From contig QPGO01000094.1 of the NCBI GenBank assembly GCA_008632985.1, positions 106,721 through 170,720 of the forward strand: DNA of 64,000 nucleotides, written 5' to 3'. Within the stretch, counting starts at the first letter, position 1, and each line of letters starts with the position of its first letter. The notes under the pieces are model-generated. The model did no database searches. It saw only the letters and a program-made list of their open reading frames with translations, and was not told the origin of the DNA. Shown one piece after another: positions 27,291-62,400 of the stretch. The translations under genes were made by a program, and so were the position numbers. This DNA comes from Psammoneis japonica (Eukaryota).

Positions 27291-27349
27291 GTCAGCATGG
27301 TTGTCATTTCAAAACATTTGTTCCAACTCCAGCAGCTGACAATGAGCGT

Positions 27350-30604: not shown

Positions 30605-30738
30605 CATTTAGCTTTCTTTGTGTCGAAGTGGAAATGACACTCAACGATTTACACTGACCATTTAGCTTTCTTTGTGTCGAAGTGGAAATGACACTCAACG
30701 ATTTACACCAACCATTTAGCTGTACTTTGGCTCGAAGT
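30605..30738. repeat. 54-bp tandem repeat, two copies plus a partial (copy at ~46587-46720)
   Basis: catttagctttctttgtgtcgaagtggaaatgacactcaacgatttacac at 30605 and 30659. Confidence 0.9.
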
Positions 30739-31119
30739 CAGACAATGAGATTGGGTTATGGGCTTGTCGTTAACCAGCCACGAGCATGAAATCTTTACCG
30801 ATTTGTCTCATCTACGTTCTGTGTATGTAGTATTCAGTATCATCTTGGTAATGTTTCCCGATTTGTCTCATCTACGTGAAGTCCTGCGCACTATCCTAGT
30901 ACGGGAAACACATCTTTTTCATACTAAGGCAGTACGTTAAAAATAGAGTATGTAGAATTATACTGAACATTCTCCGTACTGAACTATCCGTTCAAATGGC
31001 GCGCCGTCGCTCTTGACAAACGAACGAAAAACCCCAAACCGCAGACAGCAAAAAACGTAAACACGCAACGTCGCTTAGCTTCCAGCTTCTTTGGTCCGGA
31101 CGAGATACAATAGATAACG

Positions 31120-34100: not shown

Positions 34101-35097
34101 GATTCCCAAGCTTGGAACCGCGGTCATGCCTCCGGCAGAGACAGCAGCCAATTCTTTTTCCGCAACAATGCCGACGGCCGACAAGTCATCCGCGTCCTCG
34201 ACAGTTGACAAGAAGGAGGACGCCGCTCCGACACCCGCACCAGCTGCCGCAGCTGATGGAGAAAAGGTATGTCTGTTTGATGTCTCCATCATGCTGTTAA
34301 ACGACAGAGCTTCTAACGCGTGTCTCGATTTTGTTTTTTCCAATTTGCAGAAGAAAGCACATGTTACTTCGGCGTTCACCGCCGAAAAACAAGCGGTCGA
34401 GTCCACCACCGCCAACGAGAAGATTACTTTGATTTTCAGGGAAAAGGCAATGAAGAAAAAAGTTACGGTCAATTGCAAAGCCACCATGCAAGGCGCTTTC
34501 AATGCATACAAGGAGGGAAGAATTGATGTAAAGTCTCCCGACCAGTTTATCTTCAAGTTCGACGGCTTTGAAGTCGAACCTACGTCAACACCAGAATTGT
34601 TGAAGATGGCGGACGGCTACATGCTTGACGTGGAAGTCAAAAAAGGCACAAGGGTGCAAGTTCAGCAAGAGACCATTGAAATATTGGATTCCGATGAGGA
34701 TGAGACGGTGGAACCCACTCGTCCGAATGTTGTCGAGAAATGTTTCATTAGCGGCTGCATGTATCCCGAAGTCTCAGGAACTCACAAATGCCATCTCAAG
34801 AGCTGCGAAAACCACATTCATCATCTTTGCGCTGATTACTATGATCTGCGGGTCGGAGAGGAGCTTAATGTGTATTGTTGCCGCGAGCACCTTATTTCCG
34901 CTGAAGGCGATGAAGCTGACGTGGACAACGCGAAAGGAGACGAAGGCATTGACGCGGACGAAGCCGGCGGCCTACTAGCAGCAGAGGATGAGAAAGCCAA
35001 GTGCGCCGGGGTAACCCTGAAGGGCACCCCCTGCCAACGTTACCCCTTGACGGGGGAACAGTACTGCAAGGACCATGGAGAAACATCTGAATTATGA
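31120..35097 (+). CDS. ~1165-aa six-exon protein: coiled-coil repeats, SUMO-like domain, acidic SIM-like motif and two Cys/His fingers. Exons 31120-32337, 32438-32557, 32667-32729, 32823-32993, 33088-34266, 34351-35097
   Basis: Five phase-0 GT-AG introns; the first four join the 443-aa and 653-aa ORFs in frame and the fifth lies within the 653-aa ORF. FKFDGFEVEPTSTPELLKMADGYMLDV resembles SUMO/Rad60-SLD. C-terminus CAGVTLKGTPC...YCKDH. Confidence 0.8.
31810..32045 (+). repeat. Coding tandem repeat (RERELRDRAEARQADQQK / RERELRDRAEA)
   Basis: Repeated gagctacgcgatcgagctgaagca and cggcaggcggatcaacaaaaaaggga. Confidence 0.95.
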
Positions 35098-35695
35098 GCA
35101 CGAGATTGTATCTCGTCCTCACAGTAGATAGCAATTGAAGTGTTGTGACTTCAGTTGGGAATATTATAAAATCAATAAACTCATTATTGCAAATCAAATC
35201 ACCACTGTAAGATTCTAGACTATGACACTAGACTATTACAACAAATGGACAGACGTAGAGCCCATAGTCAAGGGTGACAAAGGCCAATCGCCCTGCCGGT
35301 ACAGCAGTTGTATTCCTCTGGTAGTGCGCTTTGACTTTGGGCAGAGGAGGGTGTCTCGTTTATTGCTACTTCCGGATTCCCAAGGCAACCCCTTCCATGT
35401 GGCCCACATTCGCGTGTCTGTTGAATTCGATTTCGCTACACCTTCACTCCAGTACAAGTTGCAAGACGTGCAATTGCTCGTGGAACCCTATGCCATTTCT
35501 GTTCAGGGTGTGGCTCACTTTCTCCAGGGTTTTTTTCTCCACCATAACAACGAATTGCCACAATCCTCTCCTCGTCCTGCACAGAGGCAAGACTTTTCTA
35601 GGAATCATGGGACGCCAAGAAATTTGTCAAGGACACGAGTAGTACGGGCTTGTCGGCGGCGCTTCCAGAAGAACAGACAGATCTATTCCAGAATG

Positions 35696-35804
35696 TGACA
35701 GACATCCGAGACGGGGAGTACACTCCCTTGTGTCGGACAGACTAGCATAGACAGCATGGAGAGATCCGATGATCTCTCCTTTGCTCACTTTCTTTCTCAT
35801 CTAG
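35696..35804 (+). mobile_element. Solo LTR of the copia element found in unit 2
   Basis: Identical to 51677-51785 and 58569-58677. Its left flank matches the 5' LTR flank and its right flank matches the 3' LTR flank. Confidence 0.93.
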
Positions 35805-36113
35805 TAGGCAACGGCACAAGACCGCCACGTGGACCACCGCCGCCTCCGCCCAGAAGCGACAAGACTACCACTAGCTAGAGCGGGTCCACCACCCAAATAT
35901 GACAGGGCAAGAAATTTGACGACTTGCATTTCCACCAAGCCTTACAATCCCAATGACTATATCATTGAAACGAGAAAGCGTTGGGTCAATCCTCGGTTCT
36001 TGACGCAACAATGAGGGGTGGGGTTCGTATTTAGAAGCTAGAAACTTCTTCTCTCTAGCCAGCTAGCTAGCGAACTAAGTAGCTGTCTTGTTGTTGCTGT
36101 AGCTCCTCTTTGG

Positions 36114-36556
36114 ATGTTGCTGCGATGTCCTCGAGCCATTCGGAATCGAGACCGTGTGAAAATTGCGCCACTCGCGACGCAAACCGTTGGTGTGGCTTTA
36201 TTCTTTCCGCCATACTTTTACGTCTATGAGGCTTTTGAATCATTGATGGCGCTGAGGGGTAAGGTCACGGCCTTTGAAAGTGTAACCGAGAAGAATCTGT
36301 TACGAAATTGTGCACTAACGTCATTTTGTTTTTCTTTCGTCACGACTTGGAAAAAAATTTATGAACAGTTCCTGTAATGGCGAACGCTTATTTGAATTTG
36401 AAGGAGCAGATTGCGTCGGTGCTTTTGATGCAGTACTATATCTGGCCCCTGGCAAACTGGATAAATTTCACCTATGTGCCGGAAAATCTTCGTGTTCTGG
36501 TCAGCAACGTTGTCGCCGTTTTCTGGAATGCACTGTTGTGTACCCTGGTTGCCTGA
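36114..36556 (+). other. 5'-truncated Mpv17 copy fused in frame to an upstream ATG at the repeat junction
   Basis: MLLRCPRAIRNRDRVKIAPLAT followed by QTVGVALFFPP...; the intron and second exon are retained. Confidence 0.55.
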
Positions 36557-37936
36557 TTCTTGCAAAGCCTCCAACAAGCTAGCATGTGTTCTGGTTTGTT
36601 TATGCCGTAGCTTCTTTGCACGACTTGGTACACTGGTCTCTCAAATCTTCATCTTGACTGCCTCTCAATACCAGAGATGAGCTACTGCACCTCAAATAGA
36701 CCTACGCTACGTCTCATTTCGGCGTTTAAGTTTGCTACCAACAATACAGAAAGAGGGGGGTGTATTCAAGCCACTGAGATAGCCGTCGCCGATCCTTGCA
36801 TTCTTGTTCATCTTGAAAGTAGAAAAGAGGCGTTCAATCTTTTGGAGGGCGCTGGTTTTTCCAAGTCGAATCCGTACTTTAGTACAACAGGGCAAAGTAC
36901 ACGTGCTCTGTACCATGAGTGCTGGCAAATGGCTCGCTCTGCTCAAACAAGTGGTGGGGTCGACTCTCTATGAAGCGGCTCTAACAGGAAAATCTCGATC
37001 GAGTCACCTCTTTGCCACTAGACCGCCTCGTGACGGAACCGTCAACCTTCCCGACGGTCCCGATGTTATGTCTCTTCTCGAACATGTATTCGTTACGTCC
37101 CTTAAGTCTTCTCGGCTATGCGTCATGTCTTTTCCAAGAGACTCTTGGCTCGCAGTGTCGGTGTCGTTTACACTTGAGCACTCGGTGCAAAATGGATGCC
37201 ATTACCTTGGAGGGTGACTTGTGCGGCCTTAAGGGAGCCTTGACGGGCGGCTGTGCCGCTTTCGCGCACACGGGCCAATGCGTCCCTCTAGAGTAGCAAA
37301 CGGAAAGGGAGTGCCAGGCCGCCAAGAACAGGGCGCAAGAGATTGATCATACCCCCACCAATCTCATGAGCGAGTTGCAGCGGTTAGAAGCCAGACAAGC
37401 CGATCTCAACCACATTCTGACCGATTTGGAACGCAAGGCTGAAACGCTGCAGCACGACATTACCTCGCGCATCACTCTAGCCGACAAGCTTTGAAAAATG
37501 GATTTCCTGGCGTTGGAACGTGACATGGACAGTTTGGCCAAGCACGTGGAATGGTTGCAAGAAAAAAAAATGAAAACCGAATGACCGCCACCTTGTCGGA
37601 TGAGGAGCGTGCGACGCTCCAAGAGCTCAAGCCTTCGCAGCAGGAGCTTTCCAAGAAGCTCTAACGTCAGGGGAGCGTTGTCGATCATCTCGGGCGTTGC
37701 TTGTTGAACCGTTGATTGTAAAAAAGTAGGCCTACGGAATGGTAGTTAACAAGGGAATTCAGGGTAGAACACGTAGTAGACGGCGGCTTGCAGAGGAGCC
37801 GCAAAATTTGCAAAATTGAACTAAGATGACAGATTCAAAGATGGCAAATTTTGACAATATGTAGCTAAGTAATTTAGAAACACACAGGTCGTACCAAATA
37901 CCCACCTTTGTTGTTCCCCGTCTTGCTAAAAGGTAC

Positions 37937-43900: not shown

Positions 43901-46900
43901 AATGACTCCACAGCATGAAAGATTGCTGTTCATTTTCATTGCCCCACCATCAATTTCTCCTTCACCTTTCTTGGTGTGGGAAGCATGTTTGCAATGCATC
44001 AGAGGAAAACTTTGTGAAGACAAGGAGGAGAAATTGCTCCTCCACCTTTCTTGGCACCGGAAACATGTTTGTGATGCATCAGAGGAAAACTTCATGAAGA
44101 CAAGGAGGAGAAATTGACGATGGGGCAATGAAAATGACATGCACTTCTTCGGACACATCATCATTTTTCATTGCAATGCACTGCCTTTGCTGCAGTGTGA
44201 AAAATGATGTGTTTTGCCGATTTGTCGGCAATTTTTTCATGTTCGTGGCCGGTTGAAGGAAAAGAGAAAAAAAGAGGGGATTCGACCATTGAACACACAC
44301 ACAATTGACCATGCAACCAGGGCCAGAGTTGCGCTGGCTTCTTTTGGTCCAGGGTGGTTGCTGCAGGTGCAAAGAGATGTGACACTGAGTGTGTGCCACC
44401 AAGCTGAGCAGCCCAGCTTGGGTGTCAGAGCCAAGCCCTGCCAGGCCAGCTGCCCTGGCTCCAGCTCTGCTCCTCCCAGTGTGCGCGAATTGTTGAAGGA
44501 GCACCACATTGACTCAAAGGCTGTGTTTTAAGTGGGCAGAGAGAAAAAAACTGTCATCTTGACTGGTGCTTGCTTCAGACCCTGCATCATGAGTGCAAGC
44601 TCCTCTTGAGAAATGAGTGAGAACAGCCATTTTTGGTGCCTCTCTTTGGTTGCCCACTTGGCCGCATTGCCAACAAATCTTGAACCCAACTTTGCTCACA
44701 GTTTCTTCACTCTTCAACCACAAAACAAATGGTGGGCACATGCCATGTGGCTGCTTGGCAACAAGAATGTGGTGCCAAGCATGTGCTGCACACCAAGGAG
44801 CCAAGCAGCCCAGCTCAGCTTTGAATGGAGCCCCAGGACAGCAGCCAACTCTGGGTGATCTCAGCATGGTTTGCTTGTTCAAGCTGTGCTGCACTCACCC
44901 CACAATGCTCTGTGTTGTGGTGGCTTCTTGTTGCAAGCCGTGGCTGAGTCAGCAGCCAGCGCCAGGGGCCCATCTTGCAAAGGCCAAACACACATGTTGA
45001 CCCTGTGCAAAGCTGTGTGAGGGGCCAGGCACAGGAATTTGAAACAATGGCTTCACAGCCATTGGTCCCAAGTTGTCATTTGGTTGGGAGCCATTGCTGA
45101 GGGGCTGTGAAGTGAGGGGTTGGGAGCCCAGCCAGGAGCTCACACTCTGTCACAAAGTGCTGCCACAGCTGTCTTTGCATTGCAGCCAGCCAGGTGTGGT
45201 TGACCCCAAGTTGGTGCTTGATTTAGAGTGACTGCCAAGGAGCTGTGAAGTGTGGGGTTGGGCAGTCCAGCCAGCTCGCACTCTTTGCTGACAGCAGAAA
45301 GTGCTGTCGCAGCTGTCCTTGCATTGTGGTGCCAGCCAGGTGCACACATGGCCAGAGCAGCCTTGGCACGTCCTGCTGACAAAGCTGGCAAAGATGGCAA
45401 CTCTTGTGGTTGAGCCACCTGGCATGCAGGAGTTCTGGGCACACTCCTGGGAAGTCAAATGGGAAGGAGGGCTCAGCATTGCCGCCAGTGCCAGGCACAA
45501 ATGTCAGCTTGTCTTGAGAGAGATTTGAGCCCACACAGCCCCAAGTTGGGTGTCTTGGCTGGCAAGTTAGAAAGCATTCTTGAGCACATTCTGGGATGTG
45601 GGCAGCACTGTCACCAAGAGAGCTGCTCTGCAGAGGAAGAGGGAAACAGGCAACAACATTTTGCAAGAACTGTTTTGTGTCAATGGTTGGGTGGGATGGG
45701 GCAGCATCTGGACTTTGACGGAGCATTTGGTGGACAAAGCTTGAGCACAGAGAGCTGTCCACTCAAGCTCCACAAGTGGCACATTTCAAAGGTGACACCA
45801 ATGTGTTCATGCATCAACATGCCTCAAGCTGCAAGTCACACAAAAAACTGCCACCAACCTTTCTCAACCAACCACCATCATGGACAGAACAGGTCAAGAG
45901 GTTCGAAACAAGAGTGATTGCTTCATTGACTCTCTTCTTGTTTCATGCATTCAAGAGCTTGTTCTTGTCCTTCTCAGGTGTTTGTTGTGCATTGTTGTCT
46001 CTTTTAATTCAAGTGCAAAGAGGAGTCACTTTTCTTGTTTCTGTCTCTTGAGATGTTGTTGGTTGTTGAGTGATGCAATTTTTGTTGCTTGTCACATTTT
46101 TGGAAATGTTGGCAAACCCGATCACTGCTTGATTGTCAACCCATTTGCTGCTTTGAGTCTCCATGGCATGAAATGCCGCAACTCCAGAGCCCTCAATTGT
46201 TTCATCAAACGCAGTGCTTTGAAACACGTCCAACATCAACTCGACTCAGTTGAAATCCCAGTTTGTGGGTGATGAAAAATCACGAATGTCAAACAAATGG
46301 CTGTTTTCGACATCAAGATCCCCGAGTTCAATCCAAGTGTGGCGGCGCACCTCACAGCTTGTGGCCATGACGCACACAAGCATGCCTCATTGTTGTCATC
46401 ACATGTGCTCACATCGAAAATGCCGACAGATCAAAGTTCAGGAAAAGGATGGAGCGCAAATTCATTTGTGCATTCACCAGAGCGGCACTGGCGCAATGAC
46501 ACCTGCGGCAGAAGCGATCAAAAATCCTCACTCATCGTTGACATTTTGTGTTGCTCAGAATTTGAAATCTGACCACCACCGTCAAGCATTTAGCTTTCTT
46601 TGTGTCGAAGTGGAAATGACACTCAACGATTTACACTGACCATTTAGCTTTCTTTGTGTCGAAGTGGAAATGACACTCAACGATTTACACCAACCATTTA
46701 GCTGTACTTTGGCTCGAAGTCAGACAATGAGATTGGGTTATGGGCTTGTCGTTAACCAGCCACGAGCATGAAATCTTTACCGATTTGTCTCATCTACGTT
46801 CTGTGTATGTAGTATTCAGTATCATCTTGGTAATGTTTCCCGATTTGTCTCATCTACGTGAAGTCCTGCGCACTATCCTAGTACGGGAAACACATCTTTT

Positions 46901-47101: not shown

Positions 47102-50100
47102 ATGTCAACGAGGAGAGACACAGCGACGGGAGAGCATCTATCAGTCACACGTTCGGATGTCAAGATCAATTACGAAGGCGTAGTTAGCAAAGAAGAGTTC
47201 TACCGCAAGCACGATGAGCTTCTTCAAGGAGCCCATCAGATTTGCAAGACAATGAGCCGTGCGTCCGCTCGAGAAACAGTCCTGCTCATAGGACTGCTGA
47301 ACGACATCAATACAGCGGTTATCGCCAAGGGAGCCTACAATGATGCGGTGCAGCGGTTGGGTCCACTAGGAAAAATTCTTATGCCCGCCTGGAACACGAG
47401 AGAACATTGGCGCGCGGACCCCGGGGTTTCTTCTGGACTTCGTTTTGATACTCTGAAAAGGAAAGCAAGAGAAGTCTTGGTGATGGAGGACATATATGAG
47501 GTTGCCATCAGCAAAGCAAAGGAGATTCCAGACTGCAACATGAGAAAACTAAAGACGGCGATGTCGGCGTATTATTTCAGAGCGGAAAGCCTTGACCTTC
47601 TATTGCCATGCTCCGAGGTATCGCCGCCGGCAGCGACTGGAGAATTGGTGATGGCCGCCCAGAATCCTCATATTGGGATTCCGTCTTACAATTTTGTCGG
47701 AGGAGCGCAGCTTGGCCGCAATTACGGTCAAATGGAAGGAATGGTGAGATGTTTTCCAATGGTGATTGAAATGCAACGACAGACGCTTGAACGAGAGCGG
47801 GAGCTACGCGATCGAGCTGAAGCACGGCAGGCGGATCAACAAAAAAGGGAGCGGGAGCTACGCGATCGAGCTGAAGCAAGGGAGCGAGAGCTACGCGATC
47901 GAGCTGAAGCACGGCAGGCGGATCAACAAAAAAGGGAGCGGGAGCTACGCGATCGAGCTGAAGCAAGGGAGCGAGAGCAACACGATCGAGCTGAAGCACG
48001 GCAGGCGGATCAACAAAAAAGGGACGAGCAGAAAGAAGCCAAGTATCGCCAAGAGACCGATCGGGCGAATAGCGCCCACATCAACACCTTGCTCAAGCAA
48101 AACAACATCGCAAACGCGCAAAACCAGAAGTTGTTGGGGCTGATGACGAGCGAGTTTGGGAAGATCAGCAAGTCTTTGGACATCATCACTGAGCAAGGAC
48201 AAGAATCGGAACAACGTCAGAACCAGATATTGATGACTGTGAAGAAGCCACCAAATCCTACCCTCCGCCCTTCTTTCACTGGTGATAATGATGGAGTTCG
48301 CAATCTCTTTCATGATCAGGTGAGCAAGCAAAAGATTGTGTTGGTTGTCGTCCTGTGCAGCATTATCAAATATATTCACCCCCGTTTTGTCTTTATTCTA
48401 CTCTACAATACGTGTACAGGTATCCAAGGATGACTCGTCCACGCCCGACCAGAATAAACCTGGTGCAAAAGGTGTTGATAAGCCAAATGATCCGGAGTCG
48501 TTCAAAACTCCCATGACCAAGTGTGCTGTTGGGAATAAGGTACGTAGCCAAGCCACATTTATGTTATCGTCCTGCGTTGCCTCTTTGTATAATGTTACCG
48601 CATCAGATTTATTCACGCCCTTTTTTGACTTCTGTTCTACTTATGAAGGCCTCATTGGACGATGGTGCGAAAAGCTCCGGTCTCGGTGCGCCAAAGAACA
48701 TTGGAATAAGGTATGCAAGCGTCCACTACGTATCGTCCTGCTTTGGCTCTGGTATCATTAACACATTTATTTAACCCCGTTGTGCTTTTATCCTACTCTC
48801 TAGCTGGAGTTCGGCATGTCCCCTCCCATGGACGATCTTGTCGACCTAAAGGATGACGATGACTCAGTTGTGTCCGTCACTTACTTGTCGACGTCCAGTG
48901 TCAGAAAACCCCCGTCATTGGACGACGGTGCGAAACGCGCCTGCACCGGCACGCCGAAGAATATTGGGAATAAGGTATGCAAGCTATCACTACTACGTAT
49001 CGTCCTGTTTTGACTCTTGTATCATCATCACATTTATTCACCCCCATTGGGCTTTTATCCTACTATAGCTGGAGTTCGGCGTATCCCCTCCTCCTTCTCC
49101 AACCCTGGACGACCTTGTGAAGCCGAACTTGTTGAACGAGATGTTCAACACCTGCATGACGGAGGAACGGGAGTTCTTGCCACAGAAGCAATTGGAGAAA
49201 CTGGAAGGCGTTCACGAAGAGGTTTTGGAGGGTGGGTTCACATTTCCGCCGGTACTGTGCAGCGACCCAGACATAAGCCTTTCTAGGCTTGCTTCAGCCC
49301 TGGGCCAGAACAACGACAAGCGGCCCACTCTAGGAAGCGTGGTGTTTCGATTGGCCGACTCCTTCCTATACTTTTCGGAAAATGAGGTCGACCCGTCCTC
49401 CTCAATGGAAGAGGATGATTCTCTAACTTTGGCAGTGGCATTCCAGGGCATGAGGTATCGTGTGGCCAATTCAATTGAAATCTCATTTCTCAACGGCGAT
49501 GAGGCCACAATTGAACTCGTAAGCATGGATCAGTTTGGATCCTCTGAGGCTTTGAGTCGCCTTGTGGAGACGCTGGTAGGAATTGAGAGCATCGAGAAAC
49601 TCACCTTTGCCAGTTCTGTGCGCAACGGCACCACTGTGCTTCCGATCAAGGCGGACGCTTTCAAGAAGCTTGCGAACGCTTCATTCACGATAGAGCTTCA
49701 GGCGGTCGACCTGACTGATGAGCAACAGTACATGTTGGCGAGAAGCAGCGCACCTTGGACGTTTGACCGTTGCAGCTGGAACAATAATGCTTTCCTTTTC
49801 ACAGGGCATGCTCGTTTCACTGAGTCGCCTTTGAAGCTCAGATTCGTTCAAGGATTGCTCTCCAGCAACGGTGATGTCAAAATAGGCCTTGGAAACCTCA
49901 CGCGAATAACAGAGGCTGGCAAACTGGGTAGCCTTCATATCGAGCGCCTAAAGCTACAGCAGGGAGAGGAGGAAACATTCAAGGCACTCTACGACGCAGC
50001 CAAGGAGAGCGATTGTAATTTCACCTTCAAAGATGTCGCGCATGAAACGCTAGGCTCGAAGGGGCTGAGAAAGTTCGTCGAGATTCCCAAGCTTGGAACC

Positions 50101-51078
50101 GCGGTCATGCCTCCGGCAGAGACAGCAGCCAATTCTTTTTCCGCAACAATGCCGACGGCCGACAAGTCATCCGCGTCCTCGACAGTTGACAAGAAGGAGG
50201 ACGCCGCTCCGACACCCGCACCAGCTGCCGCAGCTGATGGAGAAAAGGTATGTCTGTTTGATGTCTCCATCATGCTGTTAAACGACAGAGCTTCTAACGC
50301 GTGTCTCGATTTTGTTTTTTCCAATTTGCAGAAGAAAGCACATGTTACTTCGGCGTTCACCGCCGAAAAACAAGCGGTCGAGTCCACCACCGCCAACGAG
50401 AAGATTACTTTGATTTTCAGGGAAAAGGCAATGAAGAAAAAAGTTACGGTCAATTGCAAAGCCACCATGCAAGGCGCTTTCAATGCATACAAGGAGGGAA
50501 GAATTGATGTAAAGTCTCCCGACCAGTTTATCTTCAAGTTCGACGGCTTTGAAGTCGAACCTACGTCAACACCAGAATTGTTGAAGATGGCGGACGGCTA
50601 CATGCTTGACGTGGAAGTCAAAAAAGGCACAAGGGTGCAAGTTCAGCATGAGACCATTGAAATATTGGATTCCGATGAGGATGAGACGGTGGAACCCACT
50701 CGTCCGAATGTTGTCGAGAAATGTTTCATTAGCGGCTGCATGTATCCCGAAGTCTCAGGAACTCACAAATGCCATCTCAAGAGCTGCGAAAACCACATTC
50801 ATCATCTTTGCGCTGATTACTATGATCTGCGGGTCGGAGAGGAGCTTAATGTGTATTGTTGCCGCGAGCACCTTATTTCCGCTGAAGGCGATGAAGCTGA
50901 CGTGGACAACGCGAAAGGAGACGAAGGCATTGACGCGGACGAAGCCGGCGGCCTACTAGCAGCAGAGGATGAGAAAGCCAAGTGCGCCGGGGTAACCCTG
51001 AAGGGCACCCCCTGCCAACGTTACCCCTTGACGGGGGAACAGTACTGCAAGGACCATGGAGAAACATCTGAATTATGA
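47102..51078 (+). CDS. Copy 2 of the SUMO-like-domain gene; 1-nt deletion in exon 3 (~48703)
   Basis: Same ORFs as 31120-35097; attggaataag versus attgggaataag. Confidence 0.75.
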
Positions 51079-51676
51079 GCACGAGATTGTATCTCGTCCT
51101 CACAGTAGATAGCAATTGAAGTGTTGTGACTTCAGTTGGGAATATTATAAAATCAATAAACTCATTATTGCAAATCAAATCACCACTGTAAGATTCTAGA
51201 CTATGACACTAGACTATTACAACAAATGGACAGACGTAGAGCCCATAGTCAAGGGTGACAAAGGCCAATCGCCCTGCCGGTACAGCAGTTGTATTCCTCT
51301 GGTAGTGCGCTTTGTCTTTGGGCAGAGGAGGGTGTCTCGTTTATTGCTACTTCCGGATTCCCAAGGCAACCCCTTCCATGTGGCCCACATTCGCGTGTCT
51401 GTTGAATTCGATTTCGCTACACCTTCACTCCAGTACAAGTTGCAAGACGTGCAATTGCTCGTGGAACCCTATGCCATTTCTGTTCAGGGTGTGGCTCACT
51501 TTCTCCAGGGTTTTTTTCTCCACCATAACAACGAATTGCCACAATCCTCTCCTCGTCCTGCACAGAGGCAAGACTTTTCTAGGAATCATGGGACGCCAAG
51601 AAATTTGTCAAGGACACGAGTAGTACGGGCTTGTCGGCGGCGCTTCCAGAGGAACAGACAGATCTATTCCAGAATG

Positions 51677-54600
51677 TGACAGACATCCGAGACGGGGAGT
51701 ACACTCCCTTGTGTCGGACAGACTAGCATAGACAGCATGGAGAGATCCGATGATCTCTCCTTTGCTCACTTTCTTTCTCATCTAGCAGTACACGATTATC
51801 ATCTGTCCTAGATATCCGTTAGATTGTCCCGATGCCGCTAGTCCATGAGGTTATGAGCAGCAGTGCGCTGTTCCTCTTCCTCTGTGCTCATCTGCTGCAA
51901 CGCCTGTTGTGCGATTTGGCAACCTTTTCTTCGTTGAAATTGTCATCATTGTCACAGCTGTTTTTTCACCTCTCGATTTGTGATCAAACGACCACCGTAG
52001 AACACATGCCAGAGCTCTACATAGAAATTTGATTTTTTTCCCGCGCAACCATGGCGCCAACTGAGCAAACTTCCGTCGATTTGACCAAGATCAAGTCGAC
52101 ACAAGTCGAGTTCAAACAGCAAAATCGCTTGCCAGATGCCCGTCATTGCCTGAACGTCCTTCATTCCGACGAGACACCTGCTCCCAAAGAACTTCTGGAT
52201 AGATTTGCTCCTCAAGGCCTCAAGAGCAATGCCATCGCTGTTCTCTGTCATGAGATTGTTCATGACCTCATCATCCCCAAGGCTGCGTTGACCAAAGATC
52301 TCACACGGATTGGACCGCTTGTGGTCAAAGCTCCTCTCTTTGTGGCTGCTCCTGAAGCTCCTCCGGTTCGTCCCAACCTTGGCAATCTTCAGAAGGCCAT
52401 GATTGGGGTGATCTCAGATGGTCAAGATGCCATGACGGTCCATGTTGAGACTGTCAGTCTCTTCTTTTGCCCTGGTCTCGAGAGTTGTCTGTGTTGGGAT
52501 GATGTCTCTGCTGCTCCACACCCACCGTCAGCGACTCCTCCAAGATCTACATCTCAGTCGACCACTGCTGCAGGTCCAACTCCTGAAGATTTTGCCAAGG
52601 CCTCAGCCACTCATTTGCCTGGTCCAAAACAGTTTGAGCAAGCCATGACAAACGCACCGAAGAGCTCTGCTCCCAAGGTGTCGTCTCCTGCACCGTCTGC
52701 CATGACTGCCACTGGCGCGGCTTCTTCATCAACTGCTGCCAGCGTCACACACACCTTTAATCTAAAAGGACTTCCAAAGGATGTGCTGGCCCGCTGTCAG
52801 CGCAAGGAAGCCGGCAAAGCAGCACTTGGCAAATCTCTGGCACACCCCACAAGTCTGGAAACCTTTGTTGCGAGGATGGTGCTGAGCATCTCATCCTTGC
52901 TGATGGTTCACTCTTTGTTCATCATGCTGACTGGGACGCGAAGTCATTCCTCTGTGATCCTCTCACTTGTGATGACATCTCTCCTCAAGGAATCCGTGCA
53001 TGGCACATCACTGCAACCCAACAAGCCTCGGCTTGTGGTGTGTGCATGCATCCTCTGTGGTGTTTTATCAAGGATGGTGGAAATTGGGGTTTTGCCTGTG
53101 GAAATGATCCAACAGATGATCTGCCTCTCTGGATGACAGCAGCACTTGACCGCATGAAACTGACTGTCTTCCAGCACATTCAGAAAGTTGGAATTTTTCC
53201 GGCAGACTCCAAGCACCCTGACGTCGTTCGTCAATGCTGTGGTGATGGACATGCGGCTGTCAAGATGATTCTCTTTGACATCCTGCCGATTTGGACGAAG
53301 CACCCGCATGAGTTGATCAAGAGTCACCCGCACAAAAACAATCTTGCGGTCCTTGGCTGTCATGCTCCATTCAGAGACTGCCTCCAGCTGCGGGCTGTCA
53401 TCTCCAACGTTGATGCCTCTCTTGATGACCCTGGTGAGCTTGATGTTTTTCTCAGCAACACCCGCTGTGGCGAGTGCCTTCACCGTAAAACAGCGGATGC
53501 CCAGGAAGACAAGACCAAACAACACAAGTTCACCCAGAAGAAGATTGTTGAAACTGTTGGTGCGATTCTCAAGGAACTGGATGGCCCAGCTCTGCGTGTC
53601 AAGGAACCTCCCAAATGCCCTCCACATCGTCTTCACACATCGCCTCCTCCTCCTCTCGCTGCTCCTGTCCGCGGTCTTGACTCACTTCCCCAAGATGAAG
53701 TTTCCACTCCGCCTCCAGCGATTGAAGAGCCACCCAAGGTGCCTGACTCTCCTCCTGCGGAAGAGCCTGCGGAAACTGTGGAGCATTTTGTGAATGAATT
53801 TGCTGCTGTGGATGTTCCTGTAGATGATGATGCACAAGCCCTCCATGGTGTCTGCAAGGCCTGCATCTGTCGGATCAAGTCCTCGCCTGCCATTGCACAG
53901 AACTGTCCATGTGTTGTTTGTGGTGACAACCACTTGTTCCATGAGTGTCCTGTGTTGAACAATGCTGAGTGCCTGCACACCCATCTCATTTGGTTCTCCC
54001 AGTTTCTTCAACGTGACCAGCGTGCTTGTGATGCACTTGCGTCTGGCACGGCCAAGAAGGATTTTTCCCAGGGCCATTGTTGTGTTCGGACAAACAATGC
54101 CGCCCATTCTCCTCCAATCCGAAAACTCCTGCAAGCGGGGCAACTGTGAAAGAGGGTCCAAACGACTCGTTGCCTTCCGCTGATCCTCCTCTTTCACCTG
54201 TCTCATTTGCTGCCCTTCTTTCGAGCCCGACGAAGGCTGGTGCTCCTGATCCCAAGATGATTCCTGATGACGACCCTGGCAATCATGATCAGGGGAGGGA
54301 ATTCGATCCTCCCACATTGGATGCTGATGCTCCATTGTCCACTGATCAAGACCAAGCATTTGAGCATCTTGATGTGACTGACACCCAGCATTTGTTGCCT
54401 CTCAGTGCCGTGCGCATCTCCCCGATTTTTCTCCCCCGGAGTCACCTGCGACCTTTGCATCCTTGGCTGCCCCAGTCATTCCCATCAATCATGTGCTTCG
54501 TGATTCAACGACACATCGTGCACAGATTGATGCTGGTGCTTGGGCATCCTGTGCAGGGGACAAGAACCTCCTCCACGCCTGTGCTCCTTTTGGACTGGAC

Positions 54601-57600
54601 AACCCATGCCCTTTGAAGATGCTTCCGGCTGCTGAAGGCTCTGATGCGGCTCCTCATGGCTTTGGTTGCCTGCAGGTGCCTGCAGACAATCCTGAAGGCT
54701 TTCTTCTCGTGCGCACTTTTTATCATCCCAGTCTGCGTTCCACTTTGATTGATGAACGTGATTTTGCACGGGCTTCTGGTTTCAAATCTCAGTCCATTCG
54801 CTCCGAGCTCCTTGAGAAAACATGCGCCGACGGCACTTGCACTTGCGCTGCTTCCACTGATGCACAAGCGGCAGTTGTCCATGGTGTCCTTCGACATGGC
54901 AAGGTGTTCACACAACCCCTGGTTCCTCCGTCTCCGTCTGGCACCCCTTCGACATCAACGACCCCCAACTTGTCCTTGGTTGATGACATTGATGATGCAT
55001 GTCAACGTGCAGTCTTTTTTGTCAATGTCCAACAAGGTCCATCTGATCCCTTGCTGATGGATGCTGAGCTGTTTTTGATGCAGTGTGACTCGGCTCCGTT
55101 GTCCACCCCTGCTCATGTCCGCTCTCTCAAGGTTGAGACTGAACGTCTTCTGTGGCATCAATGCCTTGGACACCCCAGTGATCACTGCTTGTACAATGCT
55201 CACAAGTGCATTGAGGGCGTCCCCAAGTTCCGTCATGCCAATCCTGTCCTTGACACATGCCCTGCATGCATCCAAGCCAAGCAAGTCAAGACTCCTGCTG
55301 GACCGAACACGACTCGGAAGGCGACCCAACCATGCCAAGGTCTCACTGTTGACTTTGCTTTTGCTGGTCAGACTTCCAAGAATGAAGCCCGCAAGGTTGA
55401 TTGTCTTGGACACAATGGTGAAACATGTTGGATTGCTGTTTATGATCATCACACGTGGATGCTCCATGGAGCAGCGAGGGTTTCAAAGGCCAGTCCTCTC
55501 AAGTGGCTTCGCCGATTCTTGGATCGACATTCACCAAATTGTCGTGATGAACATGTGTTTGTGGACCAAGGTGGGGAATTGCACAAAAACCCCAAAGTTC
55601 GTGACCTCTTTGAACGAGAATTCCAGTGTGACATCTGTCCTTCTGGCGCTGGTGCATCCAACCAATGTGGGCCTGTTGAACGCTCACATTTTGCTGTTGA
55701 AAACGCGATTCGTGCGATTTTAATTGGTGCCAACCTTCCGATCCGATTCTGGCCCCATGCATTTTACCACTGCCTCCGCATCAAGAATGCCACTCCTGCA
55801 AAAGATCAAGATGTGGCACCCATCACTCTTGCTGCTGGAAAGGTCAAAGATTTCACCACTCTGAAGACTTTCGGATGTCGAGCATGGTCCAAACGGTCCA
55901 CTGCTTGTTCTGCTGCCTTCCGGACCAATTCCAAGAAGAGTGTCTTCCTTGGTTGCCTTCCCAACACCCTCAAGAATGTCATGTGGTGGGATCTGAGACT
56001 GATGAAGTCAAGACAGCCAAGCATGTGTGCTGCGATGAAGGCACGAATGACCCATTTTTGGATCAACTCCCTCCCAATGCTGTCCATTTACAGCGTGTGG
56101 AAAATGGTCAGCCTTTTCCAGCTGAAACACAGGACACCACCATTCCTGTGTTCACGTCTTCGTCGAATCCGTTTGCTGCGACTGTTGCATGCACCATGAA
56201 ACGTCCTCCAAAGGACCCCACTTGTGGTTTTGGATTTTCTCAGTGTGCGCCAATGGACCGTGTCCATGTGTTGGAAATCAAGCAGTGCAGTCCTGCGGCT
56301 TCATTGTTTTCTTCCCTCCGTGCTGCTTGCAACAAGATCATGGGTGCATGCGTTGTCTCTGTCAACAAGCGTGAAGTCTTTACTCCTTCGGATGCTGAAG
56401 AGGCCTTGTCTCAGGTCTTCCAAGATAAAATTCCGACTTTCGAGATCACTTTTGCGCCGGAACGACGACTGGATTCTCGCACCCTTAACAAGGCATTTGA
56501 GGAAGCAGAGTCATTTGAACCTGACACTGTGGAGGACGACTCTCATGTTCCTGAACTTACTTTGGAAGATGTGCGATCTATTGTGGCTCTTCTCTGTCCC
56601 GATGATGATTTTTTGGATGAGGCCATTCCTGCGGATGTCTTTTGTGCACATCTCAATGCGATTAGCTCCTGCTCCCTCACTCCGGAGGAAGCTGCTCTTG
56701 ACCGTCTCACCCGTGCCAAGCTTCGTAAACTTGACACATGGCCTGAATGGGAAGAAGGCGAGCAGCGTCAACTGGACCAATTTCATGCCCTGGGTGTGTG
56801 TGGTCCTCCGCAACCACATCCCCCTGGCGCGAACGTCATGCGTCCGCATTGGGATCACATGGCAAAGCCGGATGGGCAACGTTGTTCCCGACAATGTGGT
56901 GATGGTTCCAAGTTGGCAATGCCGGCCTTGCACAAGTTGACGTCCACCCATTTGTCGTGTGTGGAACGTTCCATCGAACAGATGTTTTTTGCTCTCAGTG
57001 CAGCTGTGTCGCATCGTGTCTTCGGCGGCGATGCACGGGATGCCTGCGCTCATTCTCCTGGCCCATCCCAACCGGTTTTTGTTGCTGTTGATGATGCATG
57101 TGCTGTCTGGCATGAAAAGAGATTTGGCAAGAAAGCACCCCGCCCTTGTGTTCTTCTGCTCAAGCATGCTTTTCAAGGCCATCCTGAAGCTGGTGTCCTC
57201 TGGGAGAGGCACATCAACTCGATTCTCATGGGTGCGAAACTTCTTTTCCGTAACACCACTCATGACAAGTGCATCTGTTCCGGTGAGTGTGATGGTGTCA
57301 AGGTCCTCCTCCTTCGTCAGGTTGATGATTTTGCTCTTGCTTGTCCATCTGAAAAGATTGCGAAAGAGATCTACGACCATGTTGGCAGGGCTCTCCAGAT
57401 GGAGAATGAGGGTGCTCCTCCCTTCAAGTGTTTGGGCTTGGTCACTGAATTCAACGGCATTGATGTCTTTCAAAATGACGACTCAATCACTGTCAACGTT
57501 GCCAGCTGCCTTGACCGTGTTTTCAAGACCCATGGTTGGGATGCTCCCGCTGCACATGAGTCTGATTCTGATTTCAAGGCTGCACCTGTTCCGGTTGATT

Positions 57601-58677
57601 GCACTCCTGATCTGTGCACTGCTGAAGGTCCTGAAGAGGGTGCACCCGAGTGTGACACTCTTGCTGAGTCCCAAGGATTCTCGCGCCATTCTGTCTTGGG
57701 TGAATTGGTCTTTGCCTGCTCCTGTTGTCGTTTGGACATTGGCCATCCCATTGTCACCTTGTCCAAGTTTTCCAAGGCACCAGCTGAGCTCCATTGTGAA
57801 TCACTCAAGCGTGGCCAAGCATTTGCGGCGCACCAAACATTGGGGGCTAACCCACAAGAAGTCTAAACGCGATCCCGGCCTGCCTCCTCACGATTTTGAA
57901 TGGCTTGAGGATGACCCATCTCTCCCGGATTTTCCTTGTGCTGTTGACCTTTTCCAACTTCTTGGCTTCATTGATGCGGCACATGGCGGTGAACCATGGC
58001 GTCGCCGTTCTGCTGCTGGGCACGCGCATGTCCTTGCTGGTGCTGCGATTGACTGTCGATGCTGCACGCAAACGATTGCCGCCACTGGTTCCATGGAAGC
58101 TGAGTTCCTCGCGGCTGTTGCTGGTGCAAAACAGACCCTGCACCTCCGCATGGTTCTGGAAGAATCGGGCTTTCCCCAGCGTGATCCTGCTCCCTTGCAC
58201 ATTGATGACTCCTCTGCCATCCAGATGATCAACAACAAGGTGCCTACGGAGTGATCCCGTCACATTGACATTCAACATTTTGCTGTCCAAGACTGGCATG
58301 ATGCAGGCAAGATTGTCACTCGACATGTCCCGGGTGTCATCAACCCTGCTGATGCACTGACCAAGGCCGTGGGTTGGACACTCCATTCCCGCCATGCCCG
58401 CCGCTTGATGGGACACTGCCGTTGATTGTCATCGGGTTTTGTTGTGGATTGAGTCTTGGGTGTGTCTCTGTTTTATTTGTTTCTTTGTTCTGCTGTTCTG
58501 GTCCTCTCTTTTTATTCGGATCGTCTCTTTCTTTCTTGTTGAGCATTGCATTGCTCATCAGGGGAGGGTGACAGACATCCGAGACGGGGAGTACACTCCC
58601 TTGTGTCGGACAGACTAGCATAGACAGCATGGAGAGATCCGATGATCTCTCCTTTGCTCACTTTCTTTCTCATCTAG
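51677..58677 (+). mobile_element. Ty1/copia LTR retrotransposon, internally complete but inactivated
   Basis: Identical 109-bp direct repeats starting TG; PPT aggggaggg before 58569; PBS-like GGTTATGAGC at 51849; domain order gag-PR-IN-RT-RH. Confidence 0.96.
52051..58425 (+). pseudogene. Copia gag-pol with frameshifts, a stop and pervasive Tyr to Cys/His changes
   Basis: Knuckle CVVCGDNHLFHEC; protease AQIDAGA; LWHQCLGH; integrase VDF...VDQGGEL...GPVER; RT QGHPEAG and RQVDDF; RNase H FIDAAHG, EAEF, HIDI and NPADALTK. Confidence 0.93.
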
Positions 58678-58986
58678 TAGGCAACGGCACAAGACCGCCA
58701 CGTGGACCACCGCCGCCTCCGCCCAGAAGCGACAAGACTACCACTAGCTAGAGCGGGTCCACCACCCAAATATGACAGGGCAAGAAATTTGACGACTTGC
58801 ATTTCCACCAAGCCTTACAATCCCAATGACTATATCATTGAAACGAGAAAGCGTTGGGTCAATCCTCGGTTCTTGACGCAACAATGAGGGGTGGGGTTCG
58901 TATTTAGAAGCTAGAAACTTCTTCTCTCTAGCCAGCTAGCTAGCGAACTAAGTAGCTGTCTTGTTGTTGCTGTAGCTCCTCTTTGG

Positions 58987-59429
58987 ATGTTGCTGCGATG
59001 TCCTCGAGCCATTCGGAATCGAGACCGTGTGAAAATTGCGCCACTCGCGACGCAAACCGTTGGTGTGGCTTTATTCTTTCCGCCATACTTTTACGTCTAT
59101 GAGGCTTTTGAATCATTGATGGCGCTGAGGGGTAAGGTCACGGCCTTTGAAAGTGTAACCGAGAAGAATCTGTTACGAAATTGTGCACTAACGTCATTTT
59201 GTTTTTCTTTCGTCACGACTTGGAAAAAAATTTATGAACAGTTCCTGTAATGGCGAACGCTTATTTGAATTTGAAGGAGCAGATTGCGTCGGTGCTTTTG
59301 ATGCAGTACTATATCTGGCCCCTGGCAAACTGGATAAATTTCACCTATGTGCCGGAAAATCTTCGTGTTCTGGTCAGCAACGTTGTCGCCGTTTTCTGGA
59401 ATGCACTGTTGTGTACCCTGGTTGCCTGA
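58987..59429 (+). other. Second junction copy of the truncated/fused Mpv17 ORF
   Basis: Same sequence as 36114-36556. Confidence 0.55.
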
Positions 59430-62400
59430 TTCTTGCAAAGCCTCCAACAAGCTAGCATGTGTTCTGGTTTGTTTATGCCGTAGCTTCTTTGCACGACTTG
59501 GTACACTGGTCTCTCAAATCTTCATCTTGACTGCCTCTCAATACCAGAGATGAGCTACTGCACCTCAAATAGACCTACGCTACGTCTCATTTCGGCGTTT
59601 AAGTTTGCTACCAACAATACAGAAAGAGGGGGGTGTATTCAAGCCACTGAGATAGCCGTCGCCGATCCTTGCATTCTTGTTCATCTTGAAAGTAGAAAAG
59701 AGGCGTTCAATCTTTTGGAGGGCGCTGGTTTTTCCAAGTCGAATCCGTACTTTAGTACAACAGGGCAAAGTACACGTGCTCTGTACCATGAGTGCTGGCA
59801 AATGGCTCGCTCTGCTCAAACAAGTGGTGGGGTCGACTCTCTATGAAGCGGCTCTAACAGGAAAATCTCGATCGAGTCACCTCTTTGCCACTAGACCGCC
59901 TCGTGACGGAACCGTCAACCTTCCCGACGGTCCCGATGTTATGTCTCTTCTCGAACATGTATTCGTTACGTCCCTTAAGTCTTCTCGGCTATGCGTCATG
60001 TCTTTGCCAAGAGACTCTTGGCTCGCAGTGTCGGTGTCGTTTACACTTGAGCACTCGGTGCAAAATGGATGCCATTACCTTGGAGGGTGACTTGTGCGGC
60101 CTTAAGGGAGCCTTGACGGGCGGCTGTGCCGCTTTCGCGCACACGGGCCAATGCGTCCCTCTAGAGTAGCAAACGGAAAGGGAGTGCCAGGCCGCCAAGA
60201 ACAGGGCGCAAGAGATTGATCATACCCCCACCAATCTCATGAGCGAGTTGCAGCGGTTAGAAGCCAGACAAGCCGATCTCAACCACATTCTGACCGATTT
60301 GGAACGCAAGGCTGAAACGCTGCAGCACGACATTACCTCGCGCATCACTCTAGCCGACAAGCTTTGAAAAATGGATTTCCTGGCGTTGGAACGTGACATG
60401 GACAGTTTGGCCAAGCACGTGGAATGGTTGCAAGAAAAAAAAATGAAAACCGAATGACCGCCACCTTGTCGGATGAGGAGCGTGCGACGCTCCAAGAGCT
60501 CAAGCCTTCGCAGCAGGAGCTTTCCAAGAAGCTCTAACGTCAGGGGAGCGTTGTCGATCATCTCGGGCGTTGCTTGTTGAACCGTTGATTGTAAAAAAGT
60601 AGGCCTACGGAATGGTAGTTAACAAGGGAATTCAGGGTAGAACACGTAGTAGACGGCGGCTTGCAGAGGAGCCGCAAAATTTGCAAAATTGAACTAAGAT
60701 GACAGATTCAAAGATGGCAAATTTTGACAATACGTAGCTAAGTAATTTAGAAACACACAGGTCGTACCAAATACCCACCTTTGTTGTTCCCCGTCTTGCT
60801 AAAAGGTACCTAAACCGCATACAACGATGTTTCGTTGACCGCGCTGTCAACAACCTCAGGCACAGACGCACTCTCATCCTGATTACGGTTGGAGTCTTCA
60901 GCAGTCACTGCCTTATTGTCTTCTCCATGAAGCCGCTTCCATACACGAGCAAAGAAAGCCTTTTGAGATCCTGTCTTCAATCGATTGGTTTGCTCCTTCC
61001 TTAGTTTTTTGAGCTCAGCAAGGTTTGTTTTTAACGCCGGTGGCGCAAATTCGCAACTCATGACATGTGTGTGGACGCTTACAAAGTTGGATTCAACAGC
61101 ATTTACAGATGACCAAAAGAACTTGCGACTCTCAACTTGCCCAGCACAGTGTTTGCACTCGACTCCAATACATCCGACATCCTTGAGACGTCTTTTGTTC
61201 CTATCGGCTTCAGTGAATCGACACGGCTGAAGCTGCTCCATCACGACGTACAAGAAATCCGCAATGCAGTTTCGATCTTCAGGAAGAACAATTGGCTGAC
61301 TTACGGAGGTGACGTCGGAAGCTACCTGGGCAAGAATATCTAGTGACACTGCCGGAGCTGTTGGGGTGGACGGATCGCGTGAAAATCGGATGCCTTTGTC
61401 GGTATCCACCAATCCTATCTTTTTTGCGGAAGTAATCCAGTACTGTCTAGTTGCGAGTCCTTTCGATCCCTTGGTACTGGCGCTTTGCAAAGAAAGGAAA
61501 CGCTGACGGATGTCCTGGGGCACCATCTTGCATTCACCTAGATGAAACCTTTGAATGTCGGCCACGGACTGGTAAATCCGAGAAATAGAAAATGGGAAGC
61601 ACACTGCTCTATTCGATCTTTCCTTAGCAGGAAGCGAGTGGCAGTGAATGCATCCGATACCGACTTGTCCCAATACAACAGAAAAGGTTGTGGGAGTCCT
61701 TACAGCAATATCCTCCTCGGTCGCACTAAAGGCGCAGACATTCTCGCGTAGAAAACAACGAAGCGGACTCAACGCCATCTTGTCTTCTGAAAGAGATAGC
61801 TTGATTTTGCCAGTGAAATCCGTCGTTGTGCTGCCTTCGTCCTGCGCGGATGGGGCGTAAGAAGACGAATCGCTTGATAGCGCTGACAATATAGAGTGAA
61901 GCGCTTGAGGAGACATGTCCATCGCGTTACCCTCCGAAGACTTCTCCTTCTCTTCCTTGGACGCCGTATCGTCATTCCCACGGACCATCTTCTGAGGAGA
62001 CGACGACGAGCCATCAGAGGAAGATGAAGGGGATATCTTGCTCGTAGAATTCGCTAGTGGTCGGGCTACCGTGGGTTCTTCGCCCGCCTTGAAACGGACG
62101 CCAGATGGCCCATCAATCATTCCCATTTTGGTTGCAGACTTGACAAAGTATTGCATCGTTGTGCCAGTGCTTCTTGTCTTTACTGCCTTCAGCTCCTCCA
62201 GATGCTCCTTTAGTGACGAAGGAACAAACCGACAATGTTGAAAATGATCAAGTTTCATGTCAATCACCGTTCGATAGATGCGCTTGATTGATGAAGGATA
62301 GCATACTGCTCGCTTGACACGGTCGCTGGTCCTCTCAGTATGACGACAATGGATACACCGAAGGCCAACCTGACCTACAACAACAGGATGCTTGCGCCCA

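Follow-up and report, generated by a model that had tools for sequence, protein, structure and literature searches.

The 7.0-kb element at positions 51677-58679 of a 64,000-nucleotide stretch of the Psammoneis japonica genome (assembly GCA_008632985.1, contig QPGO01000094.1, positions 106,721 to 170,720; hereafter the window) is a dead Ty1/copia-type long terminal repeat (LTR) retrotransposon, apparently similar to the diatom CoDi elements, whose interior is almost devoid of TA dinucleotides (TpA) while its short LTRs and part of its leader retain them. The CoDi-like assignment is based on 40-41% identity to three relatives. In our assessment, the chances are about even that the interior was rewritten on chromosomal DNA, in place, by a TpA-to-TpG/CpA hypermutation forming a sharp tract inside the LTRs. 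A saturated interior between identical short LTRs is no paradox; the key observation is that TAs in the LTRs and leader were spared. The locus newly offers tract limits that can be set against the LTRs, a solo-LTR paralogue, a rule concerning the 3' neighbour of TA, and a control repeat pair within the window.

TA content sets the interior sharply apart from its surroundings. Between 52026 and 58568 on the plus strand, the hypermutated interior holds 27 TAs in 6,543 bp, an observed-to-expected ratio (o/e) of 0.07, with TG at 1.66, CA at 1.44 and CG at 0.58; the host flanks carry 42 and 47 TAs per 1,000 bp (o/e 0.65 and 0.68). Judged by TA counts and repeat comparison, both LTRs are unmutated. 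The 5' copy (51677-51787, plus strand; 111 bp, TG...CA, TA o/e 0.57) and the 3' copy (58569-58679, plus strand, ending in TA instead of CA) each retain four TAs, at LTR offsets 24, 48, 53 and 107 (51700, 51724, 51729 and 51783; 58592, 58616, 58621 and 58675). Seven more (at 51789-51852) stand in the first 65 bp of the leader (51788-51852, plus strand), the unmutated part on the side of the primer-binding site (PBS). Together, the two LTRs and this first leader part contain 15 TAs in 287 bp versus 27 in the 6,543 bp of interior (Fisher p = 5.5e-11). The following 145 bp (51853-51997, plus strand) have no TA (P = 0.004 at normal density) and interior-like TG/CA ratios (o/e 1.67/1.74), and were probably mutated, while a 28-bp patch just 5' of the gag start codon (51998-52025, plus strand; ATG at 52051) is intact, with three TAs in susceptible contexts at 51998-52022. 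From the left, the order is thus unmutated LTR plus 65 bp, mutated-looking 145-bp patch, intact 28-bp patch and saturated body. An initial annotation had described LTRs identical over 109 bp that keep TA, a saturated interior, and a leader that keeps TA to about 52025. The first two statements hold; for the leader, the last TAs do lie at 51998-52022, but the TA-free 145-bp patch inside it had been missed.

Both possible products of a TpA transition occur side by side. At 27 aligned columns in which at least one of three relatives has tyrosine, the element reads Cys (TGY) at 10, His (CAY) at 6, Tyr (TAY) at 1, Phe at 3 and other residues at 7. Tyr accounts for 1 of 604 aa of the element protein versus 14 of 605 aa in its closest relative, P0001. 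Along the gene the outcomes follow the order CCC HHH CC HH C (Y) CCC H C, that is, eight Cys/His runs, approximately as expected by chance. The plus strand has 716 TG versus 542 CA, a moderate bias toward the coding strand. Since the TG and CA outcomes interleave, editing of a single strand of RNA or cDNA is rejected as sole cause, in agreement with the argument of the initial annotation against editing of one RNA strand.

This bears on the idea of editing during retrotransposition, in which the substrate of a TpA-specific deaminase would be either the RNA genome or single-stranded minus-strand cDNA. The LTR and PBS-side leader, being quick to become double-stranded, would then be spared, giving identical LTRs on insertion, and the geometry does fit, with a sharp limit between the polypurine tract (PPT) and the 3' LTR, a spared LTR and PBS-proximal leader, and clean host flanks. 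Moreover, all five sites at which sibling copies of the family (see below) read TA have CA in the window, corresponding to A-to-G on the minus strand. Yet the 10 TGY and 6 CAY codons are interleaved, refuting the idea as sole cause; TG exceeds CA on the plus strand (716 vs 542); the susceptible TAs that survive (at 52200, 52548, 53821, 55192, 56579, 57372 and 58245) show no 5'-to-3' gradient; and the same signature is found on a non-LTR repeat, where position sets it. We consider such editing very improbable.

The non-LTR repeat in question serves as a control within the window. One copy (27505-27590, plus strand) lies inside a TA-free domain, and an unmutated copy (30911-30993) lies 3.3 kb away, outside that domain. 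Where the outside copy has its 11 TAs, the inside copy has TG at six and CA at five, the two products being interleaved over 80 bp; the three CGs all read CA inside, and the one further difference is a transversion. The pair indicates that mutation follows position on duplex DNA, not family membership. The same repeat pair is also present at 43.5 kb and 46.9 kb, in the second unit of a tandem duplication described below.

Across the window, TA loss was restricted to repeat DNA, with adjoining host DNA normal: the window profile shows the same contrast as the element and its flanks. TA content is normal (o/e ~0.5-0.7) in the genic parts of the tandem units, although these units share 99.7% identity over 15.6 kb; duplication by itself is therefore not the trigger. 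The limits of TA loss also differ from those of CpG loss, because two stretches with almost no TA but normal CpG density (12950-14330 and 30024-30608) lie at the rims of CpG-poor repeat bodies. The copia interior, with its CG o/e of 0.58, resembles these TA-free, CpG-normal rims.

Survival of a TA depended on its neighbours. In all purged domains of the window, survivors were enriched for TTAA (7.9x), which resisted best among the tetranucleotides, CTAA (3.5x) and TTAG (2.8x). Counted on both strands and relative to normal DNA, survival of TAA, TAC, TAG and TAT was 0.24, 0.09, 0.07 and 0.06 in the interior, and 0.19, 0.01, 0.07 and 0.01 in older domains; throughout the TA-poor domains of the window, TAA survived 3-15x better than TAC, TAT and TAG. 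The tetranucleotide survival table is reproduced arithmetically by the product of two strand-wise factors. This rule fits an attack on the A of 5'-TA that would occur independently on each strand, with a 3' A being protective.

Fully susceptible TA contexts were reduced to 7 in the interior, against 168 expected at normal density. Sequence context was also considered as the cause of the sparing of LTRs and leader and ruled out: susceptible contexts hold 16 of the 19 TAs spared in the LTRs and leader, as compared to 7 of the 27 interior survivors, and survivors elsewhere are mostly TTA or TAA.

Maximum likelihood placed the change points of the tract at 52023 and 58474. The TAs at 58474 and 58513 both sit in TTAT, a typical survivor context, and for this reason the right limit more likely falls between 58514 and 58591, at the junction of the PPT and the 3' LTR. 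The PPT itself, AGGGGAGGG (58560-58568, plus strand), was read from the sequence and adjoins the 3' LTR.

The two LTRs match at 110 of 110 nt (51676-51785 and 58568-58677), or over 113 nt at 99% when extended, and an identical solo LTR occurs at 35696-35806 (plus strand); within the LTR bounds, the 5' copy is identical to 58569-58677 and 35696-35804. The base following the 110 nt is C at 51786 in the 5' copy, which ends in CA, and T at 58678 and 35805 in the 3' and solo copies, which end in TA. If the LTR includes the canonical terminal CA, this CA/TA pair would be the sole difference between the two LTRs of the element.

Sibling copies were assessed from Logan contigs of sequencing runs from one sample. 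Run X1, aligned to 50000-60500, gave 3,291 placed contigs (533 at ≥99% identity, 631 at 95-99%, 1,166 at 90-95% and 961 below 90%), and its depths are sums over contigs, not true copy numbers. On this scale, the LTR reached ~10,600-11,264 (11,264 at 58585) and the interior about 2,000, with values of 350-1,900 and of 1,500-2,900, compared to 144 in the left and 163-191 in the right flank, placing the LTR at ~75x the flank. The three local LTR copies all have C at 58585, where T accounts for 96% of the family depth (10,845 of 11,264). At private sites, the letters found in the window had a depth of 33-139 (median ~65). With ~65 taken as one copy, the summed depth would translate into a family of ~30 interior-equivalents and 165 or more LTR-equivalents. 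The order of magnitude of the depth excludes a single-copy host origin, and the repeats are genuine LTRs belonging to a multi-copy Ty1/copia family.

One might otherwise have read the 110-bp repeats as host sequence, duplicated when an LTR-less fragment inserted, whose TA content is simply host-like. Such a reading would accommodate the single copy that is present with both flanks in the first tandem unit, as well as the lack of a target-site duplication (TSD) and of a recognisable PBS. It would also leave the ~75-fold depth over the flank unexplained, together with a T at 58585 that accounts for 96% of that depth and is absent from the locus; furthermore, a PPT adjoins the 3' copy, and the insert would have to start exactly after the repeat. 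We assign it a negligible probability. We also considered whether the true LTR is ~220 bp long with a truncated 3' copy, given the high depth across the first ~100 bp of the leader; depth is too crude a measure to decide this. Neither blastn nor tblastx found further copies of the element family in the window apart from the solo LTR, and exact matches to the LTR patterns were absent from the metagenome and viral contigs searched.

The solo LTR lies between the same left and right flanks as the element, at the paralogous site of a tandem duplication. Self-BLAST resolved positions 20191-64000 of the window into ~2.7 copies of a 15,985-bp unit, with identities of 99.70% over 15,619 bp, 99.21% and 99.39%: unit 1 at 20191-36175, unit 2 at 36176-59048, which includes a 6,892-bp insert, and unit 3 from 59049 to the end of the window. 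The segments 35695-37132 and 58568-60005 are free of differences over 1,438 bp. Either the element is older than the duplication, with LTR-LTR recombination having removed the interior from unit 1, or a solo LTR was there first and took up the interior through homologous recombination. The assembler may also have joined two alleles as units 1 and 2; with 144 on the left and 163-191 on the right, the flank depths favour the tandem layout without proving it. Under either layout, solo and full forms of one site coexist. Between units 1 and 2, the left flank differs by A/T, A/T and A/G, none of them TA-type changes, and the right flank shows 0 differences in 1.3 kb. At the three left-flank sites (50649, 51315 and 51651), X1 lacks the window's letters and has only those of unit 1; at 51315 the window's letter is also absent from a further run, X2.

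Variants are shared among the units as a mosaic: over the first ~400 bp, units 2 and 3 agree against unit 1, whereas from 21147 units 1 and 2 agree against unit 3, which suggests gene conversion between units. This raises the question of whether the LTRs had mutated or diverged and were then overwritten from an unmutated LTR, such as the neighbouring solo copy, an option that the initial annotation had listed as homogenisation. Besides the evidence of conversion between units, the identity of the 3' LTR and right flank to unit 1 over 1,438 bp speaks for it, as does the C at 58585 in all three local LTRs where T makes up 96% of the family depth. The option fails, though, at the leader, whose 7+3 TAs could not be restored from a solo LTR that has no leader. 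It would also need two separate conversion tracts, each ending at an inner LTR edge, and a difference between units 1 and 2 lies just 26 bp to the left of the 5' LTR (51651), although X1 lacks the window's letter there. We regard homogenisation as improbable.

After the duplication, 23 substitutions arose in ~5.1 kb of repeat domain (25.3-30.4 kb) and 10 in ~10.5 kb of genic parts; the excess in the repeat domain is mostly at CpG. Two sites 4 bp apart in this domain (28632-28637 versus 44614-44619) read CA in unit 1 and TG in unit 2. They are reciprocal double hits that occurred after the duplication, and the ancestral state may have been TA or CG.

For divergence from siblings, we inspected the best 40 of 2,058 variable places in X1, in all of which the alternative letter has a share of at least 92%. 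Three of these 40 rows lie in the left flank and 37 (35 sites) in the element. Among the latter, the window has CA where siblings have TA in 5 rows, TA where siblings have CA or TG in 2, TG against CA in 4 (2 sites), and CG where siblings have TG or CA in 6; the remainder comprises 10 other transitions and 10 transversions. In 15 of the 37 rows, X1 lacks the letter present in the window, and some of these may be assembly errors; the other 22 are sound. These near-fixed differences carry no polarity, as reciprocal TG/CA sites may derive from TA or CG. The comparison of siblings proposed by the initial annotation therefore goes part of the way: it yields five sites with TA in siblings and CA in the window, the direction of which it does not set. 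In X1, change types amounted to 468 C>T, 394 G>A, 426 T>C and 264 A>G, with 40-91 for each transversion type; any split of these tallies into shared and reciprocal TA outcomes depends wholly on the assumed share of ordinary transitions. At 54286-54287 the window reads TG and most of the sibling depth CA; T at 54286 has a depth of 65, approximately that of a single copy, and G at 54287 was not seen. The reads may hold TA at this place, which could stem from a very recent change, from a further copy or from an error of assembly.

Ordinary private changes number 11-20 in 6.9 kb, or 0.16-0.29%, and siblings have an extra base behind 54425 (907 of 1,177 depth), corresponding to a 1-bp deletion and frameshift in the window copy. 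As 35 sites differ from at least 92% of the sibling depth, and the window's own letters occur at approximately single-copy depth, the window copy is not a fresh duplicate. At 0.25% ordinary divergence per lineage, the probability of no difference in 110 bp is ~0.58, bearing out the remark in the initial annotation that 109 bp have weak dating power. Its premise that identical LTRs normally mean a young insertion is not supported here. The identity of the 110-bp LTRs dates nothing at this locus because a third identical copy exists, a TSD is lacking, 35 private-type sites separate the copy from its siblings, and TpA presumably evolves at a rate far above background. For the chlorarachniophyte Bigelowiella natans, the available text of a recent preprint gives 6e-7 for TpA versus 3.5e-10 per site and generation, which is a ratio of ~1,700x (Mettrop et al., bioRxiv 10.64898/2026.01.13.699255). 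By analogy, 0.25% ordinary divergence would correspond to ~4 hits per TA site and hence to saturation. Of the three options in the initial annotation, a fast mutator sparing the edges fits best.

The remaining option is that the interior was mutated at a donor locus before it arrived, and we see this as a possible, though somewhat unlikely, course of events. The routes would be retrotransposition in trans by proteins of live relatives, or recombination or gene conversion of a sibling, cDNA or circle into the solo LTR. Only copies with unmutated cis parts (LTR, PBS-side leader and PPT) can move, and this filter would account for the sparing; indeed, the unmutated parts are those required in cis. 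Arrival by recombination agrees with the lack of a TSD and with the identically flanked solo LTR of the paralogous unit; for diatom CoDi elements, the accessible text of PMC2806351 reports recombinants that lack a TSD and have near-identical LTRs. The family size derived from summed depth (~30 interior-equivalents, at least 165 LTR-equivalents) is compatible with such movement. In addition, mean X1 depth is 5,320 in the bin that combines the leader with the final 33 bp of the 5' LTR, more than spill-over from the LTR plus the interior level; by this crude measure, LTR plus leader may exist in more copies than the interior. Finally, only 5 near-fixed sites, among the best 40, have TA in siblings and CA in the window. 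On the other side, the donor, too, would need spared LTRs, so that the sparing is relocated and not explained, and mutation in the window tracks position rather than family. The window copy is also without a twin, its private letters being at single-copy depth, and the 11-20 ordinary private changes together with the private 1-bp deletion at 54425 point to time spent apart.

The explanation that we favour, hypermutation in place, is supported because survival by 3' neighbour in the interior matches that in the other purged domains, and because the host flanks show no TA-type change relative to unit 1. In the proposed sequence of events, the interior would have been rewritten on double-stranded chromosomal DNA, most likely at the present locus, by the same TpA-to-TpG/CpA hypermutation that purged other repeat domains of the window, with slower CpG decay on top. 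The sequence shows that the A of 5'-TA is attacked on each strand independently and that a 3' A is protective. The tract is sharply limited within the element: it starts 176-350 bp inside the 5' end and stops at most 78 bp from the PPT/3'-LTR junction, leaving untouched both 111-bp LTRs, the first 65 bp of the leader, the solo LTR and the host flanks. Presumably, what the mutator attacks in a long element is its silenced body, and terminal or solo pieces that are short and border transcribed host DNA would escape. A TA-specific rate of ~1,000x background would saturate the interior long before a 110-bp LTR gained one ordinary change.

Several points weigh against this explanation. At its 3' end the tract stops within 78 bp of the LTR/PPT junction (the interior's final TA is at 58513, the first in the LTR at 58592), which fits LTR-specific sparing better than an arbitrary chromatin edge. 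Sparing of edges is not general, given that the TA-free zones at 30024-30608 and ~12950-14330 overshoot CpG-poor bodies. Whether the ~250 lost TAs are private can be read only among the best 40 of the 2,058 variable places, where just 5 near-fixed differences set TA in siblings against CA in the window, with no direction assigned. The lack of a TSD, moreover, leaves the route of the element to the locus in doubt.

A stronger version of the idea, which we put forward as speculative and on the whole unlikely, is that LTR sparing is systematic, a per-strand adenine deaminase with the preference 5'-T-A-(not A) being recruited only to silenced long bodies and halting at LTR boundaries. If so, elements with dead coding regions would keep live LTR promoters and cis signals, could still be transcribed, could drive neighbouring host genes and could be mobilised in trans. 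Hypermutation would then create non-autonomous lineages and not merely bury elements; a defence that spares LTRs as a rule would kill the genes and let the promoters stay.

The interior retains remnants of gag, protease (PR), integrase (INT), reverse transcriptase (RT) and RNase H (RH) in at least five frame pieces, listed as open reading frames (ORFs) on the plus strand at 52033-53136, 52761-54149, 54382-56199, 55701-57866 and 56941-58254. The integrase region (55069-55992, plus strand) matches gag_pre-integrs and SH3_retrovirus (Pfam E = 9.4e-6 and 0.0022, both under the curated cut-offs), and an RVT_2 remnant, the copia-type reverse transcriptase, lies at 57150-57530 (plus strand; Pfam E = 2.4e-4, under the cut-off). 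The integrase matches fall in ORF 54382-56199 and the RVT_2 match in ORF 55701-57866, placing INT upstream of RT. Protein searches returned only three relatives at 40-41% identity, with no sibling among them. The closest, P0001 (958 aa), has 40% identity over 611 aa (E = 3e-126) and carries PF07727 and PF25597 (E = 3e-126 / 3e-136); the two others are shorter, at 41% identity.

A TSD of ~5 bp was not found, the left flank reading GAATG and the right GGCAA (TAGGC if the LTR ends at 58677). Nor was a PBS of tRNA type or for self-priming recognised after the 5' LTR: no TGG follows, and the longest complementarity between LTR and leader is 7 nt. The window contains no tRNA genes. Each LTR harbors a perfect 9-bp hairpin with a 4-nt loop (51739-51760, 58631-58652 and, in the solo copy, 35758-35779), and a second stem of 6 bp lies at ~51694-51707. 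The element's neighbours are a gene with a Rad60-SLD match, the ORF of which stops at 51078 in unit 2, and an exon of the Mpv17/PMP22 family (E = 1e-15). In run X2, one contig skips 59131-59240 with GT..AG ends and looks RNA-derived, one contig starts exactly at 58680, the first base past the 3' and solo LTRs, and the bin with the 5' LTR end and leader (51755-52105) has a mean depth of 7.7. X2 did not cover 52106-58423 or the 3' LTR, and a third run, X3, had no coverage; these blanks carry no information.

Three known hypermutation systems and one family of elements invite comparison. APOBEC3G converts C to U on one strand, the minus-strand cDNA of retroviruses such as HIV-1, least affecting the LTR and PBS-proximal region and stopping at the PPT. 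The present element shares the hypermutated retroelement, the least affected LTR and PBS-proximal region and the stop at the PPT, but its changes are A:T-to-G:C on both strands, interleaved. In Neurospora and other ascomycetes, repeat-induced point mutation (RIP) is triggered by sequence duplication and inactivates transposons at the DNA level: within sharply bounded tracts, both strands are hypermutated at one dinucleotide, CpA, which C-to-T changes turn into TpA. Our locus is alike in showing DNA-level, two-strand dinucleotide hypermutation of a transposon in sharp tracts. The chemistry is the opposite, however, with TpA depleted instead of in excess, and a 16-kb tandem duplication of 99.7% identity has kept its genic parts unmutated, perhaps for want of a sexual cycle since the duplication. 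RIP is mentioned in the discussion of the B. natans preprint (bioRxiv 10.64898/2026.01.13.699255).

The closest match is the B. natans system itself (Mettrop et al., bioRxiv 10.64898/2026.01.13.699255). According to the available text, it is likewise TpA-specific, gives TpG or CpA depending on the strand, and is limited to DNA of foreign or repeat origin, next to which host DNA is normal. Its targets are integrated giant-virus and virophage DNA, with a TpA rate far above background, and TpA-poor coding sequences are enriched for reverse-transcriptase and DDE domains. In P. japonica, by contrast, the target is a retrotransposon, such that the tract limits can be placed against the LTRs, and the process is known from sequence alone; CpG decay accompanies it in the same domains (interior CG o/e 0.58), and a 3'-neighbour rule is visible, with TAA resistant. 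The main text of the preprint, as available, has no mention of trinucleotide, context, flanking, neighbo(u)r or boundary.

Among elements, the CoDi Ty1/copia group (Maumus et al. 2009, PMC2806351) shares the copia type and very short LTRs, and intact-looking copies with LTRs >99% identical and no TSD are explained there as recombinants. TpA loss is not treated in the accessible text, in which 'dinucleotide' occurs 0 times. LTRs of ~110 bp have a diatom precedent, given that the LTR of Blackbeard, which functions as a promoter, is only 163 bp long (PMC2806351).

So far, a single 2026 preprint, on a chlorarachniophyte, has reported TpA-specific hypermutation of foreign DNA, and our literature search turned up no account of it in diatoms or retrotransposons. 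The locus warns that the identity of ~110-bp LTRs cannot date insertions where TA sites evolve orders of magnitude faster. Without dating the insertion, it shows where a DNA-editing process stops: to the system described in B. natans, it adds a tract stop relative to known element structure, inside both LTRs, and a 3'-neighbour rule that fits independent attack on each strand.

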